Positions 16,853 through 57,553 of a DNA stretch of 64,000 bases are shown here, in pieces. Every line of letters starts with the position of its first letter. Within the stretch, counting starts at the first letter, position 1. The notes beneath the pieces are model-generated. The model made no database searches. It was not told the DNA's origin and saw only the letters and a program-made list of their open reading frames with translations. The DNA lies in NCBI RefSeq assembly GCF_003334785.1, contig NZ_QOWV01000007.1. The stretch is one strand, 5' to 3'. The DNA comes from Escherichia coli (GTDB taxonomy: Bacteria; Pseudomonadota; Gammaproteobacteria; Enterobacterales; Enterobacteriaceae). The position numbers and the translations under genes are program-made.

Positions 16853-17058
16853 TCATACAAATAAGATGACGGCATTTTACTCGCACGTTCCATGAAAATC
16901 CTTTGCAAAGCGTAATGTTTCAAATGCACAAAACTTTTATACTCTAAGAAATCAGGATTGCACCAGTACAAGCAGCCTGATGTTTGACGAGTATTTAACT
17001 TGTTATGAATAACATAGAATAGCAGCCATTCACTTTTTCTACGAATCAGGAACCCTCC

Positions 17059-18339
17059 ATGAGTAAGTCTGAAAATCTTTACAGCGCAGCGCGCGAGCTG
17101 ATCCCTGGCGGTGTGAACTCCCCTGTTCGCGCCTTTACTGGCGTGGGCGGCACTCCACTGTTTATCGAAAAAGCGGACGGCGCTTATCTGTACGATGTTG
17201 ATGGCAAAGCCTATATCGATTATGTCGGTTCCTGGGGGCCGATGGTGCTGGGCCATAACCATCCGGCAATCCGCAATGCCGTGATTGAAGCCGCCGAGCG
17301 TGGTTTAAGCTTTGGTGCACCAACCGAAATGGAAGTGAAAATGGCGCAACTGGTGACCGAACTGGTCCCGACCATGGATATGGTGCGCATGGTGAACTCC
17401 GGCACTGAAGCGACCATGAGCGCCATCCGCCTGGCCCGTGGTTTTACCGGTCGCGACAAAATTATTAAATTTGAAGGGTGTTACCATGGTCACGCTGACT
17501 GCCTGCTGGTGAAAGCCGGTTCTGGCGCACTCACGTTAGGCCAGCCAAACTCGCCGGGCGTTCCGGCAGATTTCGCCAAACATACCTTAACCTGTACTTA
17601 TAATGATCTGGCTTCTGTACGCGCCGCATTTGAGCAATACCCGCAAGAGATTGCCTGTATTATCGTCGAGCCGGTGGCAGGCAATATGAACTGTGTTCCG
17701 CCGCTGCCAGAGTTCCTGCCAGGTCTGCGCGCGCTGTGCGACGAATTTGGCGCGTTGCTGATCATCGATGAAGTGATGACCGGTTTCCGCGTAGCGCTAG
17801 CTGGCGCACAGGATTATTACGGCGTAGTGCCAGATTTAACCTGCCTCGGCAAAATCATCGGCGGTGGAATGCCGGTAGGCGCATTCGGTGGTCGTCGTGA
17901 TGTAATGGATGCGCTGGCCCCGACGGGTCCGGTCTATCAGGCGGGTACGCTTTCCGGTAACCCGATTGCGATGGCAGCGGGTTTCGCCTGTCTGAATGAA
18001 GTCGCGCAGCCGGGCGTTCACGAAACGCTGGATGAGCTGACAACACGTCTGGCAGAAGGTCTGCTGGAAGCGGCAGAAGAAGCCGGAATTCCGCTGGTCG
18101 TTAACCACGTTGGCGGCATGTTCGGTATTTTCTTTACCGACGCCGAGTCCGTGACGTGCTATCAGGATGTGATGGCCTGTGACGTGGAACGCTTTAAGCG
18201 TTTCTTCCATATGATGCTGGGCGAAGGTGTTTACCTGGCACCGTCAGCGTTTGAAGCGGGCTTTATGTCCGTGGCGCACAGCATGGAAGATATCAATAAC
18301 ACCATCGATGCTGCACGTCGGGTGTTTGCGAAGTTGTGA
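17059..18339 (+). CDS. hemL: Glutamate-1-semialdehyde 2,1-aminomutase
   Basis: 426-aa [29 protein letters not shown]... matches HemL. Confidence 0.97.
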
Positions 18340-18348
18340 TCCAGCATG

Positions 18349-18485
<137 letters not shown>

Positions 18486-18496
18486 ATATGGAAAAA

Positions 18497-20479
18497 TTAA
18501 CGGCTCTGCTTTCTCAACAAATAGATAAAATATGGCGCGCCGATAAAGGTTGACAGCAGCCCCGCCGGGATCTGGAATGGAAACAGCACCATCCGCCCAC
18601 ACCAGTCAGCGAACACCAGCAGTAAACCACCCACCAGCGCCGAAATTACGATGTGTGGCATCGTCCGTCGAAAGCCCATCATCCGCGCAATATGCGGTGC
18701 CATTAAACCAACAAAACTCAACGGTCCAATAGTCATCGTCGCGGTCGCCGTCAGGCAAGCCGCTAACAGCAGCAGCGCAATTCGCGTCGGCGTCAGCGCC
18801 ATTCCTACGGCTCGGGCGGTATCACCACCCAGCGGTAAAATGGTCAGCCAGCGGCGGCACAGCGGGGTAATCGCCAGCAAAATCACCATCACAATTCCGG
18901 TGCGCCAGACCTGCGCATCGGTCGCGTTGTAGGTCGAACCGGAAATCCAGGTCAGCACTTGCGCCATTCGCGGGTCACCACTTGCCTGCAACATCATCAA
19001 AAGCATGGTGAACGCGGTGCTTAACGCCATCCCCGCCAGTAACATACGGTGTGGGGAAAATCCACCGCGGCCGGCGGCGATCATAATGATCAACAGCGTC
19101 ACCGCCGCGCCGAGACTGCCTGCAGGTAACAGCCAGCCAAAGGCATTACCCGGCACCAGAAACAGCATCAACACCACGCCAAACGCCGCGCCGGAGCTAA
19201 TCCCCAGCACTTCCGGGCTTGCCATCGGGTTTCCGGTCAGTCGCTGAATAATACAGCCCGCCACCGCCAGCATGACGCCCGCAAACAGCGCCGCCATAAT
19301 TCGCGGCCAGCGCCAGGGCATTAAATCCTCGAGCAACGCCCCGCTCGCCCACGTCCAGCCGTGCGCATCACGACCAAACGACAGCGCCACCACCACAGCC
19401 ATCAACAGCAGCACGCCGCCCGCGAGGGCAAACGCCAGCACATGTTGGCGTTCAGCCGCGACACGATCGTTGACCTTCATATCCGGCGCGCTAATGCTGC
19501 GTAAACGCGGCAACAGCCACAGTAGCAGCGGCGCACCGATCAACGCAGTGACCGAACCGGTGGACACTTCCATCCACACGCGAGTCAGCCAGAGGATGAT
19601 TTGATCGGAAAGCCAGAGGATCAGCGCACCAATCAACGACGCCAGCATCAGTCGTGGCAGCAGACGCCGCGCCCCCAGCATTTTTGCCAGCAGCGGCGCG
19701 AACAACCCGATAAAGCCGATAATCCCCACAGCGTTCACCAGCAGCGCACTGATGACAATCGCCAGCGACAGCGCCGCCAGACGCGCAAGCGACAAGGCCA
19801 GCCCGAGATTGCGCGCCACGCCATCATCAAGCCCCATCAGGGTTAACGGACGAAGTAGCAGCAACGTCAGCATCACACCGCCCAGCAGCTGCGGCCATAA
19901 ACGCTCAACGCCGCCCCAGTCGGTTTGCGTCAGCGTTCCAGTGCTCCACAGAAACATGCTTTGCAGTTGGTCATGATGGAAGATAACCAGTAACTGATTG
20001 ATTGCGCCGCAATAAAGGCTCACTACCAACCCCGCGAGAATCAGCGTTACCGGCGACAGCCGTTTCCCCCACGCGACGCCAAAGACAATTAAGCCAACAA
20101 CACAAGCCCCTGCCAGCGCAGCAAACTGGCTCGCCATCGCACCAGGGATCGCCCAGAGCGTAGTGACGGTAATCCCCAGTTGCGCGCCTGTAGCAACGCC
20201 AAGCGTCGTCGGCTCCGCCAGCGGGTTACGCAGCACTTGCTGAAACAGCACGCCCACCAGCCCCAGACCCGCGCCCACCAGCAGCGAAATCGCCAGACGC
20301 GGCAACAAGCTGTAGTGAAAAATCATCTGCTCGATGACGTCAATATCCGGCGACCAGGCAGCCTGCGCCCACTGGCTACGCGGCAGCGCCTGCGAGAAGT
20401 TCATCCAGGTGAGCGCCGTAGCGACAATCACTAACAGCGCCAGCAATAACGCCGGGAAAAGCGCAATTCGTTTACTCAC
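18497..20479 (-). CDS. fhuB: Ferric hydroxamate ABC transporter permease
   Basis: 660-aa ORF, duplicated FecCD-type permease. Confidence 0.96.
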   Translation of the reverse strand: MSKRIALFPALLLALLVIVATALTWMNFSQALPRSQWAQAAWSPDIDVIEQMIFHYSLLPRLAISLLVGAGLGLVGVLFQQVLRNPLAEPTTLGVATGAQLGITVTTLWAIPGAMASQFAALAGACVVGLIVFGVAWGKRLSPVTLILAGLVVSLYCGAINQLLVIFHHDQLQSMFLWSTGTLTQTDWGGVERLWPQLLGGVMLTLLLLRPLTLMGLDDGVARNLGLALSLARLAALSLAIVISALLVNAVGIIGFIGLFAPLLAKMLGARRLLPRLMLASLIGALILWLSDQIILWLTRVWMEVSTGSVTALIGAPLLLWLLPRLRSISAPDMKVNDRVAAERQHVLAFALAGGVLLLMAVVVALSFGRDAHGWTWASGALLEDLMPWRWPRIMAALFAGVMLAVAGCIIQRLTGNPMASPEVLGISSGAAFGVVLMLFLVPGNAFGWLLPAGSLGAAVTLLIIMIAAGRGGFSPHRMLLAGMALSTAFTMLLMMLQASGDPRMAQVLTWISGSTYNATDAQVWRTGIVMVILLAITPLCRRWLTILPLGGDTARAVGMALTPTRIALLLLAACLTATATMTIGPLSFVGLMAPHIARMMGFRRTMPHIVISALVGGLLLVFADWCGRMVLFPFQIPAGLLSTFIGAPYFIYLLRKQSR

Positions 20480-32814: not shown

Positions 32815-34212
32815 ATTTTTACCCGAGTCGCTAATTTTTGCCGCAAGGTGCTAAGCCGCGAGGAAAGCGAGGCTGAACAGGCAGTCGCCCGTCCACAGGT
32901 GACGGTGATCCCGCGTGAGCAGCATGCTATTTCCCGCAAAGATATCAGTGAAAATGCCCTGAAGGTAATGTACAGGCTCAATAAAGCGGGATACGAAGCC
33001 TGGCTGGTTGGCGGCGGCGTGCGCGACCTGTTACTTGGCAAAAAGCCGAAAGATTTTGACGTAACCACTAACGCCACGCCTGAGCAGGTGCGCAAACTGT
33101 TCCGTAACTGCCGCCTGGTGGGTCGCCGTTTCCGTCTGGCTCATGTAATGTTTGGCCCGGAGATTATCGAAGTTGCGACCTTCCGTGGACACCACGAAGG
33201 TAACGTCAGCGACCGCACGACCTCCCAACGCGGGCAAAACGGCATGTTGCTGCGCGACAACATTTTCGGCTCCATCGAAGAAGACGCCCAGCGCCGCGAT
33301 TTCACTATCAACAGCCTGTATTACAGCGTAGCGGATTTTACCGTCCGTGATTACGTTGGCGGCATGAAGGATCTGAAGGACGGCGTTATCCGTCTGATTG
33401 GTAACCCGGAAACGCGCTACCGTGAAGATCCGGTACGTATGCTGCGCGCGGTACGTTTTGCCGCCAAATTGGGTATGCGCATCAGCCCGGAAACCGCAGA
33501 ACCGATCCCTCGCCTCGCTACCCTGCTGAACGATATCCCACCGGCACGCCTGTTTGAAGAATCGCTTAAACTGCTACAAGCGGGCTACGGTTACGAAACC
33601 TATAAGCTGTTGTGTGAATATCATCTGTTCCAGCCGCTGTTCCCGACCATTACCCGCTACTTCACGGAAAATGGCGACAGCCCGATGGAGCGGATCATTG
33701 AACAGGTGCTGAAGAATACCGATACGCGTATCCATAACGATATGCGCGTGAACCCGGCGTTCCTGTTTGCCGCCATGTTCTGGTACCCACTGCTGGAGAC
33801 GGCACAGAAGATCGCCCAGGAAAGCGGCCTGACCTATCACGACGCTTTCGCGCTGGCGATGAACGACGTGCTGGACGAAGCCTGCCGTTCACTGGCAATC
33901 CCGAAACGTCTGACGACATTAACCCGCGATATCTGGCAGTTGCAGTTGCGTATGTCCCGTCGTCAGGGTAAACGCGCATGGAAACTGCTGGAGCATCCTA
34001 AGTTCCGTGCGGCTTATGACCTGTTGGCCTTGCGAGCTGAAGTTGAGCGTAACGCTGAACTGCAGCGTCTGGTGAAATGGTGGGGTGAGTTCCAGGTTTC
34101 CGCGCCACCAGACCAAAAAGGGATGCTCAACGAGCTGGATGAAGAACCGTCACCGCGTCGTCGTACTCGTCGTCCACGCAAACGCGCACCACGTCGTGAG
34201 GGTACCGCATGA
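32815..34212 (+). CDS. pcnB: Poly(A) polymerase I
   Basis: The ORF track starts at TTG 32794; the known 465-aa protein begins at the ATT codon 32815-32817 ([13 protein letters not shown]), a documented non-canonical AUU initiation. Confidence 0.9.
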
Positions 34213-53307: not shown

Positions 53308-54858
53308 TTATACCGTAAACCCTAACATCATCCCCGTATCTTCATGCTCCAGCAGATGGCAGTGCGCCATATAAGCATGTTCTTTCGGTGCATCGTGATT
53401 AAACTTCACCAGCACTTCGCTGACATTACCTTCTACCTTAACGGTATCTTTCCAGCCCGCGCGATGAGCCGCTGGCGGTTTGCCATTTTCTGACAAGATA
53501 CGGAACTGCGTGCCGTGGATATGGAACGGATGCAGCATCATGTCGCCCACGCCAGAGATAACCCAACGTTCGTATTGCCCTTTCGCCGCCGCAAACATCG
53601 GCTTGTTCATATCAAACGCCTGACCGTTGATTTTGTTGGCATGGTGGAAATCGAACTTCCCGCCGTGGTTCATATGATTCATATTGCCGTGCCCCATATG
53701 GCCCATCATCTGGCTGTGATCCATCCCGGCCATCGCCTGATCGCCATATTTCTCCATTAGCATCTGCATCCCCATCATATCGAGCATCGGGTCCATAGAG
53801 AGTTGCAGCTTGCGTACCGTCAGCCCTTCCAGCGAAGGTAACGCAGGCAGGCTACTTAATGTGTCTGGCAAAGCACCGGAGGCACTAATAGCAATCGGCT
53901 GAATCCGCATTACCGGATGAGGCTTATCAAACGGCGCAATCGCCATCCCCATCTGGCTGACCGGCAGCGTCACCAGGTCAAAGGGTTTGTTATCGTTAAC
54001 CTCCACCAGCACTTCAAAACGCTCGCCCATCAGCACCGGCAGTTCGCTCACCTTCACTGGTTCAGGTAGCAGACCACCGTCGCTGGCAATCACATACAGC
54101 GGGCGATTGTCGCTGGTGGCGAAATTGAGCGAACGGGCATTACAGCCATTGAGCAAACGCAGGCGCAGCCAACCACGCGGGGCAGCGTGTTGCGGGTAGA
54201 TTGCACCGTTGGTCAGCAACGTATCGCCAAACCAGCCCACGGCGGCGGTCATCACATCCAGTTGATAATCAATCTGCCCGTCGGCGCTAAATTTCTTATC
54301 CTGAACGATCACCGGAACATCATCGATACCCCACTGTTTTGGCAGCATTAATTTCAGGATCTCGTCATCTTCAATCACCACCAGCCCAGCCAGCCCCATC
54401 GCCACCTGTCGCCCGGTTTTGCCGTGCTGATGCGGATGGAACCAGCAGGTAGCGGCAGGTTGATCAACGTTCAACGTCACCGAGCGCTTGCCACCTGGCG
54501 GAATAATTCCCTGCGGGCCGCCGTCGACTTCACCCGGTACTTCCAGCCCGTGCCAGTGCAACGTTGTCTCTTCCGTCAGTTGGTTGTAGATATCAACCGT
54601 TACCGCTTTGCCGCGCTGTAATTTCACCGCCGGCCCCAGCAGATTGCCGTTATAGCCCCAGGTAGTTGCAGTTTTCCCGCCAAAGGTGGACTGGCCTGCG
54701 CCAATAGTTAACTGAATGCGATTACGGGCATCGGTCGTGAGCAAATCAGGGATCGGTAACGTTGGGCGTTCTGCCGCAAATACTGCGCGGCTCCACAGCG
54801 GCAAAGCCGAAGCCACACCCAGCGCGACGGAATATTTTAAGAAATCACGACGTTGCAT
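53308..54858 (-). CDS. cueO: Multicopper oxidase CueO (periplasmic cuprous oxidase)
   Basis: The known 516-aa protein starts at [28 protein letters not shown] (twin-arginine signal); His-rich copper sites ([19 protein letters not shown]) and a Met-rich segment. Confidence 0.96.
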
Positions 54859-55023
54859 AGTTATTTCCTTATTCTTAAGCAGGCGAAACAAAATCAAACG
54901 TTGAGCATAGTCCTTCCCCTTACGGGAAGGTCAAGCCGCAGACACAATTTAATCGACAATAATGGTCGTCGCCTCGCTCGCAGTGTGCTAACGTTTATCT
55001 TCTTTAAGCCCCTGGTAGAAGCA

Positions 55024-55371
55024 ATGAAGACGTTTTTCAGAACAGTGTTATTCGGCAGCCTGATGGCCGTCTGCGCAAACAGTTACGCGCTCAGCGAGTC
55101 TGAAGCCGAAGATATGGCCGATTTAACGGCAGTTTTTGTCTTTCTGAAGAACGATTGTGGTTACCAGAACTTACCTAACGGGCAAATTCGTCGCGCACTG
55201 GTCTTTTTCGCTCAGCAAAACCAGTGGGACCTCAGTAATTACGACACCTTCGACATGAAAGCCCTCGGTGAAGACAGCTACCGCGATCTCAGCGGCATTG
55301 GCATTCCCGTCGCTAAAAAATGCAAAGCCCTGGCCCGCGATTCCTTAAGCCTGCTTGCCTACGTCAAATAA
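55024..55371 (+). CDS. yacC: Uncharacterised secreted protein YacC
   Basis: The ORF track starts at 54853 overlapping cueO; the likely 115-aa product starts at MKTFFRTVLFGSLMAVCANSYA (signal peptide). Confidence 0.85.
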   Translation: MKTFFRTVLFGSLMAVCANSYALSESEAEDMADLTAVFVFLKNDCGYQNLPNGQIRRALVFFAQQNQWDLSNYDTFDMKALGEDSYRDLSGIGIPVAKKCKALARDSLSLLAYVK

Positions 55372-55476
55372 TCCCTGATACCTTTTTGTAGAAATATTGA
55401 CCGTGCATCCGCGGTCAATGTTAGCTATTATGTTGCGCCCTTTTTTTACGGGTGTTAACAAAGGAGGTATCAACCC

Positions 55477-56343
55477 ATGGCCGAAAAAAAACAGTGGCAT
55501 GAAACGCTACACGACCAGTTTGGGCAGTACTTTGCGGTAGATAACGTTCTGTATCATGAAAAGACCGATCACCAGGATCTGATCATTTTTGAGAACGCTG
55601 CATTTGGTCGCGTAATGGCGCTGGATGGCGTAGTACAAACCACCGAGCGCGACGAGTTTATCTATCATGAGATGATGACCCATGTTCCGCTACTGGCCCA
55701 TGGTCACGCGAAACATGTGCTGATTATCGGCGGCGGCGACGGTGCCATGCTGCGTGAAGTAACCCGACATAAAAACGTTGAGTCAATCACGATGGTGGAA
55801 ATCGATGCGGGTGTCGTATCGTTCTGCCGTCAGTATCTACCCAACCATAACGCCGGTAGCTACGACGATCCGCGCTTTAAGCTGGTGATCGACGATGGCG
55901 TCAATTTCGTTAATCAAACCAGCCAGACCTTTGATGTCATTATCTCCGACTGCACCGATCCTATCGGTCCCGGCGAAAGCCTTTTCACTTCGGCATTTTA
56001 TGAAGGCTGCAAACGTTGCCTGAATCCTGGCGGTATCTTCGTCGCACAAAACGGCGTCTGCTTTTTACAGCAGGAAGAAGCCATCGACAGCCATCGCAAA
56101 CTCAGCCATTACTTCAGCGACGTTGGCTTTTATCAGGCGGCGATCCCGACCTATTACGGCGGTATCATGACTTTTGCATGGGCGACAGATAACGACGCCT
56201 TACGCCATCTCTCAACCGAAATTATTCAGGCGCGTTTTCTCGCCTCTGGCCTGAAATGCCGTTATTACAATCCGGCAATCCATACGGCAGCTTTTGCCTT
56301 ACCTCAGTATCTGCAAGACGCACTGGCTTCACAGCCGTCCTAA
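55477..56343 (+). CDS. speE: Spermidine synthase
   Basis: 288-aa [64 protein letters not shown]... matches SpeE. Confidence 0.97.
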
Positions 56344-56358
56344 GGAGAAGATAAGAAA

Positions 56359-57153
56359 TTGAAAAAACTGAAACTGCATGGCTTTAATAATCTGACCAAA
56401 AGTCTGAGTTTTTGTATTTACGATATCTGCTACGCCAAAACTGCCGAAGAGCGCGACGGTTATATTGCTTATATCGATGAACTCTATAATGCCAACCGTC
56501 TGACCGAAATCCTGTCAGAAACCTGTTCCATTATCGGGGCTAATATTCTTAACATCGCCCGCCAGGATTACGAACCACAGGGTGCCAGCGTCACTATTCT
56601 GGTGAGTGAAGAACCGGTTGACCCGAAACTCATCGACAAAACAGAACACCCCGGCCCACTGCCAGAAACGGTCGTTGCCCATCTTGATAAAAGTCATATT
56701 TGCGTACATACCTACCCGGAAAGTCATCCTGAAGGCGGTTTATGTACCTTCCGCGCCGATATTGAAGTCTCTACCTGCGGCGTGATTTCTCCGCTGAAGG
56801 CGCTGAATTACCTGATCCACCAGCTTGAGTCCGATATCGTAACCATTGATTATCGCGTGCGCGGTTTTACCCGCGACATTAACGGTATGAAGCACTTTAT
56901 CGACCATGAGATTAATTCGATTCAGAACTTTATGTCTGACGATATGAAGGCGCTGTATGACATGGTGGATGTGAACGTCTATCAGGAAAATATCTTCCAT
57001 ACCAAGATGTTGCTTAAAGAGTTCGACCTTAAGCACTACATGTTCCACACCAAACCGGAAGACTTAACCGACAGCGAGCGCCAGGAAATTACCGCTGCGC
57101 TGTGGAAAGAAATGCGCGAGATTTATTACGGGCGCAATATGCCAGCTGTTTAA
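56359..57153 (+). CDS. speD: S-adenosylmethionine decarboxylase proenzyme
   Basis: 264-aa ORF beginning at TTG ([27 protein letters not shown]...); matches SpeD. Confidence 0.95.
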
Positions 57154-57158
57154 CGGCT

Positions 57159-57184
57159 CTGGCGGAGCTCCCAGGCTCCGCCAG
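57159..57184. terminator. Bidirectional terminator hairpin between convergent speD and yacL
   Basis: Inverted repeat ctggcggagc-tcccag-gctccgccag followed by atttattta. Confidence 0.6.
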
Positions 57185-57190
57185 ATTTAT

Positions 57191-57553
57191 TTACTTCTGC
57201 TGCACGAAATTGCGGTAAGCCGCCACGACCTGCAGAAAATCCTCAACGCCGCATAGCGACAGGCTTTCTTCGTCGTAGTAGTTCATCCCCTCTTCCATTT
57301 CATCGCCAGCGAATTCCAGTTGATTGGCGCGAACCATCACCTCTTCACCGTCCATCCACAGGGTGTATTCATGCCCTGCCCGTTGCCAGGACCGTTCGCT
57401 ACCTTTCAGTGCGTGCGCTGCTTGTTCCACTTCATCAAGCAAGGCCAGGTTTTCTTTCACCTCTTCATTAAACCAGTGCCCGACCACTTCATGCCCCATG
57501 GACATACGCACCTTTACCACTCCGGTAATATCGCGCAGAAATTCGTAATCCAT
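57191..57553 (-). CDS. yacL: UPF0231 family protein
   Basis: The ORF track starts at 57601; the known 120-aa protein starts at [31 protein letters not shown] (57553). Confidence 0.9.

Follow-up and report, generated by a model that had tools for sequence, protein, structure and literature searches.

The UUG start codon and the distant Shine-Dalgarno sequence of Escherichia coli speD are conserved across Enterobacterales

In mammals and plants, S-adenosylmethionine decarboxylase is controlled by a polyamine-sensing upstream ORF. In S. pombe, the corresponding gene, spe2, has a spermidine-binding 5′UTR (PMC6961545). The polyamine modulon of E. coli consists of genes whose translation polyamines stimulate, as judged in a polyamine-requiring mutant (MA261). 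One class of its members has a UUG or GUG start (cya, spoT, cra, uvrY, frr and gshA), while in an alternative class the Shine-Dalgarno (SD) sequence is obscure or distant, at 10 nt in soxR and emrR versus the normal 6 (PMC4405209; PMC7177335). Correcting either feature abolishes the 2–4-fold stimulation by polyamines (PMC4405209; PMC7177335), and for the distant-SD class a bulged hairpin close to the SD is described as a requirement of the mechanism (PMC7177335). Here we describe how speD, a gene of polyamine metabolism which encodes S-adenosylmethionine decarboxylase in E. coli, compares with these systems.

The window, i.e. the whole stretch of DNA analysed, is 64 kb long. The genomic stretch matches every one of the 5426 complete E. 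coli genomes at 95–100% identity, and the neighbourhood cueO, yacC, speE, speD, yacL and acnB has the order of the E. coli chromosome. Compared with the annotated speED operon of E. coli K-12 (speD b0120, speE b0121), it is the same locus with no sequence difference; the junction of the two genes is identical to that of the K-12 derivative AB1157 (135549–135619), and RefSeq has the same TTG start and the same 264-residue proenzyme. The features of the locus, numbered from the first base of the window, are the following.

55460–55469, plus strand: SD of speE, AAAGGAGGTA, strong, with a long aligned spacer (9 nt) to ATG 55477.
55477–56343, plus strand: speE CDS (spermidine synthase / polyamine aminopropyltransferase), 288 codons, ATG start and TAA stop, annotated in RefSeq.
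56341–56343, plus strand: TAA stop of speE, with which the speD SD begins.
56341–56347, plus strand: SD of speD, TAAGGAG, with 7 contiguous pairs to the 16S anti-SD.
56348–56358, plus strand: spacer AAGATAAGAAA, A-rich, 11 nt, exceeding the spacer of most other Enterobacterales by one base.
56359–56361, plus strand: initiation codon of speD, TTG (UUG), the RefSeq start.
56359–57153, plus strand: speD CDS (S-adenosylmethionine decarboxylase proenzyme, E. coli type), 264 codons.
56692–56694, plus strand: AGT, codon 112 (Ser) counted from TTG, preceded by the codon for Lys111.
57158–57185, plus strand: intrinsic-terminator-like hairpin closing the speED unit, 12 pairs (8 of them G-C), then a T-rich tail.

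SpeE was recognised by the NCBIfam equivalogs NF002010 (425 bits, with a cut-off of 260) and TIGR00417 (416 bits), and SpeD by the equivalog TIGR03331 (491.5 bits against a cut-off of 255.8), with residues 3–261 spanning positions 1–259 of the 259 in the profile. The identities of both genes, as the initial annotation had proposed them, are thus secure and agree with RefSeq. The speE gene is directly upstream of speD on the same strand, an order found in 80 of 80 Enterobacterales loci, and its SD forms a duplex of −12.9 kcal/mol with the 3′ end of the 16S rRNA. A simple consensus scan detected no promoter-like site inside 55300–57300, and so no candidate for an internal speD promoter, and the terminator-like hairpin lies 3′ of speD. 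With one strong terminator, no internal promoter-like site and the output of about 1:1 given below, speE and speD are probably carried on one mRNA and translated with comparable efficiency.

RefSeq/PGAP places the start of speD at TTG 56359. An in-frame TAA is present six codons 5′ of this TTG, the five codons between them (GGA GAA GAT AAG AAA) are non-start codons, and between TAA 56341 and codon 82 the TTG is the only canonical in-frame start. The next one is a GTG at codon 82, and initiation there would cost SpeD most of its small subunit. A conserved 11-residue N-terminus comes directly after the start codon in all homologues examined, also in those which start with ATG, and in most genera an in-frame stop sits 2–3 codons 5′ of the speD start. 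Codons 111–112 counted from TTG are AAA AGT (Lys-Ser, 56689–56694), the published self-cleavage site of E. coli SpeD (UniProt entry P0A7F6), with the serine as the pyruvoyl precursor; the Lys111-Ser112 numbering fits only if TTG is codon 1 and so accords with the TTG start. A search for a PDB chain matching SpeD by sequence, as a structure showing the N-terminus, returned none. As far as can be judged from sequence, TTG appears to be the real and only possible start of speD. The initial annotation had also let speD begin at this codon, an assignment borne out by the RefSeq start, by the lack of an alternative in-frame start and by the match to the profile from residue 3. The start is already annotated and already known; it is present in every E. 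coli annotation and by itself changes nothing.

Positions 56341–56361, in which the junction is contained, read TAAGGAGAAGATAAGAAATTG. AGGAG (56343–56347) has its first A in common with the stop codon of speE, and the SD of speD forms a duplex of −9.1 kcal/mol with a 9-mer anti-SD or −10.7 kcal/mol with a 13-mer. The distance from AGGAG to TTG is exactly 11 nt, the intergenic gap is 15 nt and the spacer in the aligned register is 10 nt. That TAA 56341–56343 overlaps AGGAG, and that TTG 56359 follows at about 11 nt, had been noted before from the sequence, and all these coordinates proved to be correct. The A content is 55% over 56348–56380, a region which covers the spacer and the first speD codons, and codons 2–3 of speD are AAA AAA, a context generally linked to good initiation. 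We looked for a regulatory or sequestering RNA structure at the junction and found none, the fold being no more stable than that of shuffled sequence (z = +0.26); nor was any Rfam element detected there, the only matches being chance, sub-threshold ones to eukaryotic snoRNAs.

To place these features against the local background, we turned to a near-identical strain, in which the corresponding 64 kb have 55 annotated CDS, of which 48 start with ATG, 5 with GTG, one with ATT (pcnB) and one, speD, with TTG. In the genome as a whole, about 3% of E. coli genes begin with UUG (10.1101/063800). SD spacers were measured, in one fixed 16S register, as the distance between the start codon and the base that falls on the last G of UAAGGAGG in the alignment. 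In the 36 genes with a usable SD, the mode was 6 nt, with 32 of 36 at 3–8 nt and only 2 of 36 at 10 nt or more; in the same register the spacer is 10 nt in speD and 9 nt in speE. The SD had been called distant in the initial annotation, which this comparison upholds (10 nt in speD against a local mode of 6), and "TTG with distant SD" is a fair description of speD, as both features are rarer than the local background.

Both features are old. Scanning a single genome of each species, we collected 80 Enterobacterales loci, which extend from Escherichia to Photorhabdus, Yersinia and Budvicia. The aligned speD start was TTG in all 80; the codon after it encodes K, Q, H, S, N or R. The bases at −1 and −2 are A in 79 of the 80 loci, and the SD is kept even where it is non-coding. 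Its usual form in Enterobacterales, at the homologous place, is AGG(A/G)GGTGA, with −16 to −19 kcal/mol against a 13-mer 16S tail, such that most genera have a very long SD of 10–12 pairs alongside UUG. Of 81 sequences, 64 have an aligned spacer of 9 nt and 6 have one of 10 nt, the length in Escherichia; the long spacing between SD and start (9–10 nt) is conserved as well. E. coli and E. albertii have a derived form, in which TAAGGAGGTGATAA-AAA became TAAGGAGAAGATAAGAAA, a change that weakened the SD (to −10.7 kcal/mol) and added one base; the ancestral form which is contrasted with the Escherichia SD is AGGAGGTGA. Among the 5426 E. coli genomes, 5309 carry an identical 71-nt junction, and no complete genome had an exact match to an ATG or GTG version of it.

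Outside the order, proteins with 75–80% identity start with TTG in Permianibacter, Marinobacterium and Neptunomonas and with GTG in Gallaecimonas, and none of these four close outgroups has an in-frame ATG as an alternative. All four have a GGAG/GAGG core about 9–10 nt 5′ of the start. In five homologues at 45–60% identity the homologous codon is ATG, and their SD does not exceed −5.2 kcal/mol in strength; a sixth distant homologue (42% identity) has a called GTG start and also a weak SD. The starts in the outgroups are gene-caller calls that we checked against in-frame stops, and in three outgroups the SD register is ambiguous. As the distant homologues use ATG, the SpeD protein itself has no need of TTG. 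The distribution suggests that a switch from ATG to a non-ATG codon took place in the ancestor of this group and was kept together with a strong, distant SD. The pattern of start type and SD strength would fit compensation between codon and SD, being drawn from 10 outgroup loci and one large clade and thus from few independent events.

For the output of the two genes, we used the ribosome profiling rates of Li et al. 2014, as tabulated in the S1 Table of Price et al. 2016 (PMC5053530) and taken here from the entries for these two proteins. SpeD is made at 6346 monomers per generation in rich medium, 1745 in minimal medium and 1826 in medium with no methionine, and SpeE at 4911, 1960 and 2631, respectively, according to the same entries (PMC5053530). 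The SpeD/SpeE synthesis ratios that follow from these tabulated values are 1.29, 0.89 and 0.69. Such rates are accurate to about two-fold and mix translation efficiency with differences in mRNA level along the operon; at this accuracy, ratios of 0.69–1.29 mean that the output of SpeD and SpeE is about 1:1. By weight fraction, SpeD amounts to 359 ppm and SpeE to 440 ppm, where typical proteins are at 3–21 ppm, and SpeD is among the highly expressed proteins in Price et al. (PMC5053530).

Taken together, we consider it probable that the UUG of speD and its strong, distant SD are an old design which selection has kept in this branch of SpeD proteins, the SD offsetting the weak codon, with a high output at about 1:1 to SpeE. 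Under this reading, the 7-pair SD UAAGGAG, overlapping the stop of speE, would recruit the 30S subunit and position it 10–11 nt 5′ of UUG 56359. The unstructured, A-rich spacer and the AAA AAA at codons 2–3 would favour initiation and may help to offset the weak UUG. Ribosomes that end speE 15 nt upstream, with the SD under them, are probably re-used for speD in E. coli. Escherichia would run this design with a shortened SD and one extra spacer base, versus the SD of 10–12 pairs in most genera. In sum, the weak codon with its strong but distant SD would be a selected set-point of expression and not a defect. Read in this way, speD is a natural case of a weak codon and an over-long SD spacing that stay unchanged across a bacterial order while the protein is abundant and made at about 1:1 with its operon partner.

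The alternative that survives best is that coupling is obligatory, i.e. that speD is mainly translated by ribosomes which terminate at the TAA of speE and re-initiate 15 nt further on, with the output of the two genes tied at 1:1. The junction resembles that of known coupled operon pairs in its short 15-nt gap, in an SD lying over the stop, in the single transcription unit suggested by the simple scan (no internal promoter-like site and one terminator) and in the near 1:1 output, and in several genera the stop of speE abuts TTG or is 0–6 nt away from it. Thus, some coupling to the termination of speE is plausible in E. coli. However, unlike in coupled pairs, this geometry is not conserved among relatives. 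The distance from the speE stop to TTG varies from 0 to 77 nt across Enterobacterales, with all three frame relations occurring, and three outgroups, Marinobacterium, Neptunomonas and Gallaecimonas, retain TTG or GTG and the long spacer in a speD that is not preceded by speE. As the gap is variable and three of the four close outgroups have the non-ATG start with no upstream speE, coupling cannot be the reason for which TTG was kept. Moreover, no RNA structure masks the site such that upstream translation would be needed to open it, and an SD of 7 pairs suffices for independent initiation. We therefore regard obligatory coupling as possible but on the unlikely side. We also considered a SpeE-SpeD read-through fusion, given that speE and speD are in the same reading frame in E. 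coli, and rejected it as a selected feature, since the frame relation varies among genera.

A second alternative is that speD is an unrecognised member of the polyamine modulon, in which putrescine and spermidine would tune how much is made of the enzyme by which S-adenosylmethionine is committed to spermidine. By analogy with known members this is conceivable, as both defining features are found in speD, namely the UUG start and a distant SD (11 nt after AGGAG, 10 nt when aligned), and both are conserved beyond what the expression level alone seems to require; we nevertheless hold it to be doubtful. The texts of PMC4405209 and PMC7177335 do not include speD, and a positive loop, in which the end product stimulates a gene of its own biosynthesis, would be an odd arrangement. 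In addition, the bulged hairpin of the distant-SD class (soxR, emrR, oppA, rpoN and others) is not predicted near the SD of speD. A literature search linking speD to UUG, TTG or start codon gave nothing relevant. Although the sequence features are present, we did not file speD as a member of the modulon, because membership is defined by experiment and not by sequence. Perhaps the conserved UUG, the strong SD and the 9–10-nt spacer form a polyamine-sensing initiation site which sets the level of S-adenosylmethionine decarboxylase, a suggestion by analogy that we put forward only tentatively. With both features of the modulon, speD offers a direct test of self-regulation in the polyamine pathway, at the initiation step of its committed enzyme.

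It is improbable, in our view, that the TTG is a historical accident, of single origin, which persists by chance or under weak constraint and has no particular function. All TTG and GTG cases are indeed in one related group of proteins (at least 73–75% identity), which makes a single origin likely. Persistence since then was examined by parsimony on a neighbour-joining tree built from speD codons 13–260. The T of TTG showed 0 changes, where third codon positions average 17.4 and only 1.5% of them have none; a change of this T to A or G would leave the protein unaltered. Four-fold degenerate sites, used as a neutral proxy on the same tree, average 11.4 transversions, although 1 of the 37 has none as well. 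The empirical p for the invariance of the start T is accordingly about 0.03, while a Poisson value of 1e-5 ignores the variation of rates between sites; taken empirically, the statistic is modest. Besides, the bases at −1 and −2 and the SD are also nearly invariant, even as non-coding sequence, and the absence of an exact ATG or GTG version from the E. coli genomes likewise speaks against chance.

The initial annotation had suggested weak or coupled initiation at speD that would set the SpeE:SpeD ratio. Read as weak initiation, this would mean that UUG and the distant SD lower the output such that SpeD is made at a fraction of the level of SpeE. Reporter studies give some reason to expect this: those with UUG initiate at 10–100% of the AUG level (10.1101/063800), a change of UUG to AUG raised GshA-lacZ 3-fold, and EmrR-lacZ rose 6-fold when an SD at 10 nt was brought to 6 nt (PMC4405209). 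The speD spacer is, moreover, in the long tail of the local genes. This reading is nonetheless contradicted by the published profiling values, in which, for the two entries used, SpeD synthesis is 0.7–1.3 times that of SpeE in three media and SpeD, at 359 ppm, is highly expressed (PMC5053530), and we consider it very unlikely. A non-AUG start should thus not be read as a sign of low expression. Lastly, that the start is mis-annotated and translation begins elsewhere is hardly credible, because, although gene callers sometimes pick wrong non-ATG starts, we found no specific support for it here, and it conflicts with the lack of another canonical in-frame start before codon 82, with the conserved N-terminus immediately after TTG or its ATG counterparts and with the upstream stop 2–3 codons away in most genera.

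Beyond what is annotated, only the conserved design, across the order and further, and the link to polyamines are of interest, and what is added here is the comparative picture and the connection to expression data. Among the described systems, speD resembles gshA of the polyamine modulon in its UUG start and soxR and emrR in an SD placed 10–11 nt away, and it is itself a gene of polyamine metabolism. If polyamines did act at this site, there would be a bacterial feedback or feed-forward loop, at the level of translation, on the same enzyme that eukaryotes control via a polyamine-sensing upstream ORF. The mechanisms would be unrelated, as the eukaryotic ones depend on a uORF peptide or on 5′UTR structure and speD has neither an upstream ORF nor a predicted structure; the enzyme step, on the other hand, is the same, and in speD the control point would be translation initiation.

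In the window, the two genes of the operon are laid out as follows.

55477-56343, plus strand: speE, ending in the TAA stop codon at 56341-56343
56359-57153, plus strand: speD, starting at the TTG codon at 56359-56361

In E. coli, speE and speD lie in one frame (55477-57153) with only the TAA and five sense codons between them, so that read-through of the TAA would yield a SpeE-SpeD fusion. The frame relation of the two genes varies between genera, the gap modulo 3 taking all three values, and the common frame in E. coli is therefore probably incidental. The Shine-Dalgarno sequence of speE, AAAGGAGGTA (55460-55469), is very strong (-12.9 kcal/mol) and is separated from the ATG, which ends at 55479, by a long spacer of 9 nt. 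As the Shine-Dalgarno of speD, which overlaps the speE stop codon, lies 10-11 nt before its TTG, a strong but distant Shine-Dalgarno is a layout common to both genes of the operon.

Other start codons in the window were also noted. The annotated start of pcnB is ATT, a rare non-canonical codon (32815-32817); initiation at AUU has been confirmed for just two E. coli genes, pcnB among them (10.1101/063800). On the minus strand, the mechanical ORF list extends cueO (53308-54897, 529 aa) to a TTG at 54897, while its RefSeq start is an ATG with its first base at 54858, 39 nt downstream of that TTG.

At the other end of speD, between it and the convergent yacL, we identified a G+C-rich hairpin of 12 pairs with a T-rich tail (57158-57185), which may act as a bidirectional terminator serving both the speD and the yacL sides.

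In E. coli strain HT-948 (NZ_CP122317.1), the match to the window (56150-56362) stops at 56362, one base past the start codon of speD, and no speD is annotated at the end of the match. In this genome speD looks to have been deleted with its start codon left in place, possibly by engineering. The 71-nt speE-speD junction (56322-56392) had 5426 matches in complete E. coli genomes, and three of these were on records labelled as plasmids, not chromosomes. Compared with strain E2 (NZ_CP048915.1), the coordinates of the window are offset by 123 nt and then by 836 nt within roughly 1-18500, which indicates insertions or deletions between the strains, and they agree from about 18500 on.

A sequence search of the Protein Data Bank with the E. 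coli-type SpeD (56359-57150) returned no chain at E <= 0.001, and thus this branch appears to be without a solved structure detectable by sequence. Outside Enterobacterales, an OsmC-family gene was found directly upstream of speD and on the same strand in half of the ten outgroup loci (L085, L087, L088, L089 and L090), the position that speE takes in Enterobacterales, and the pairing of the two genes looks like a recurrent neighbourhood.
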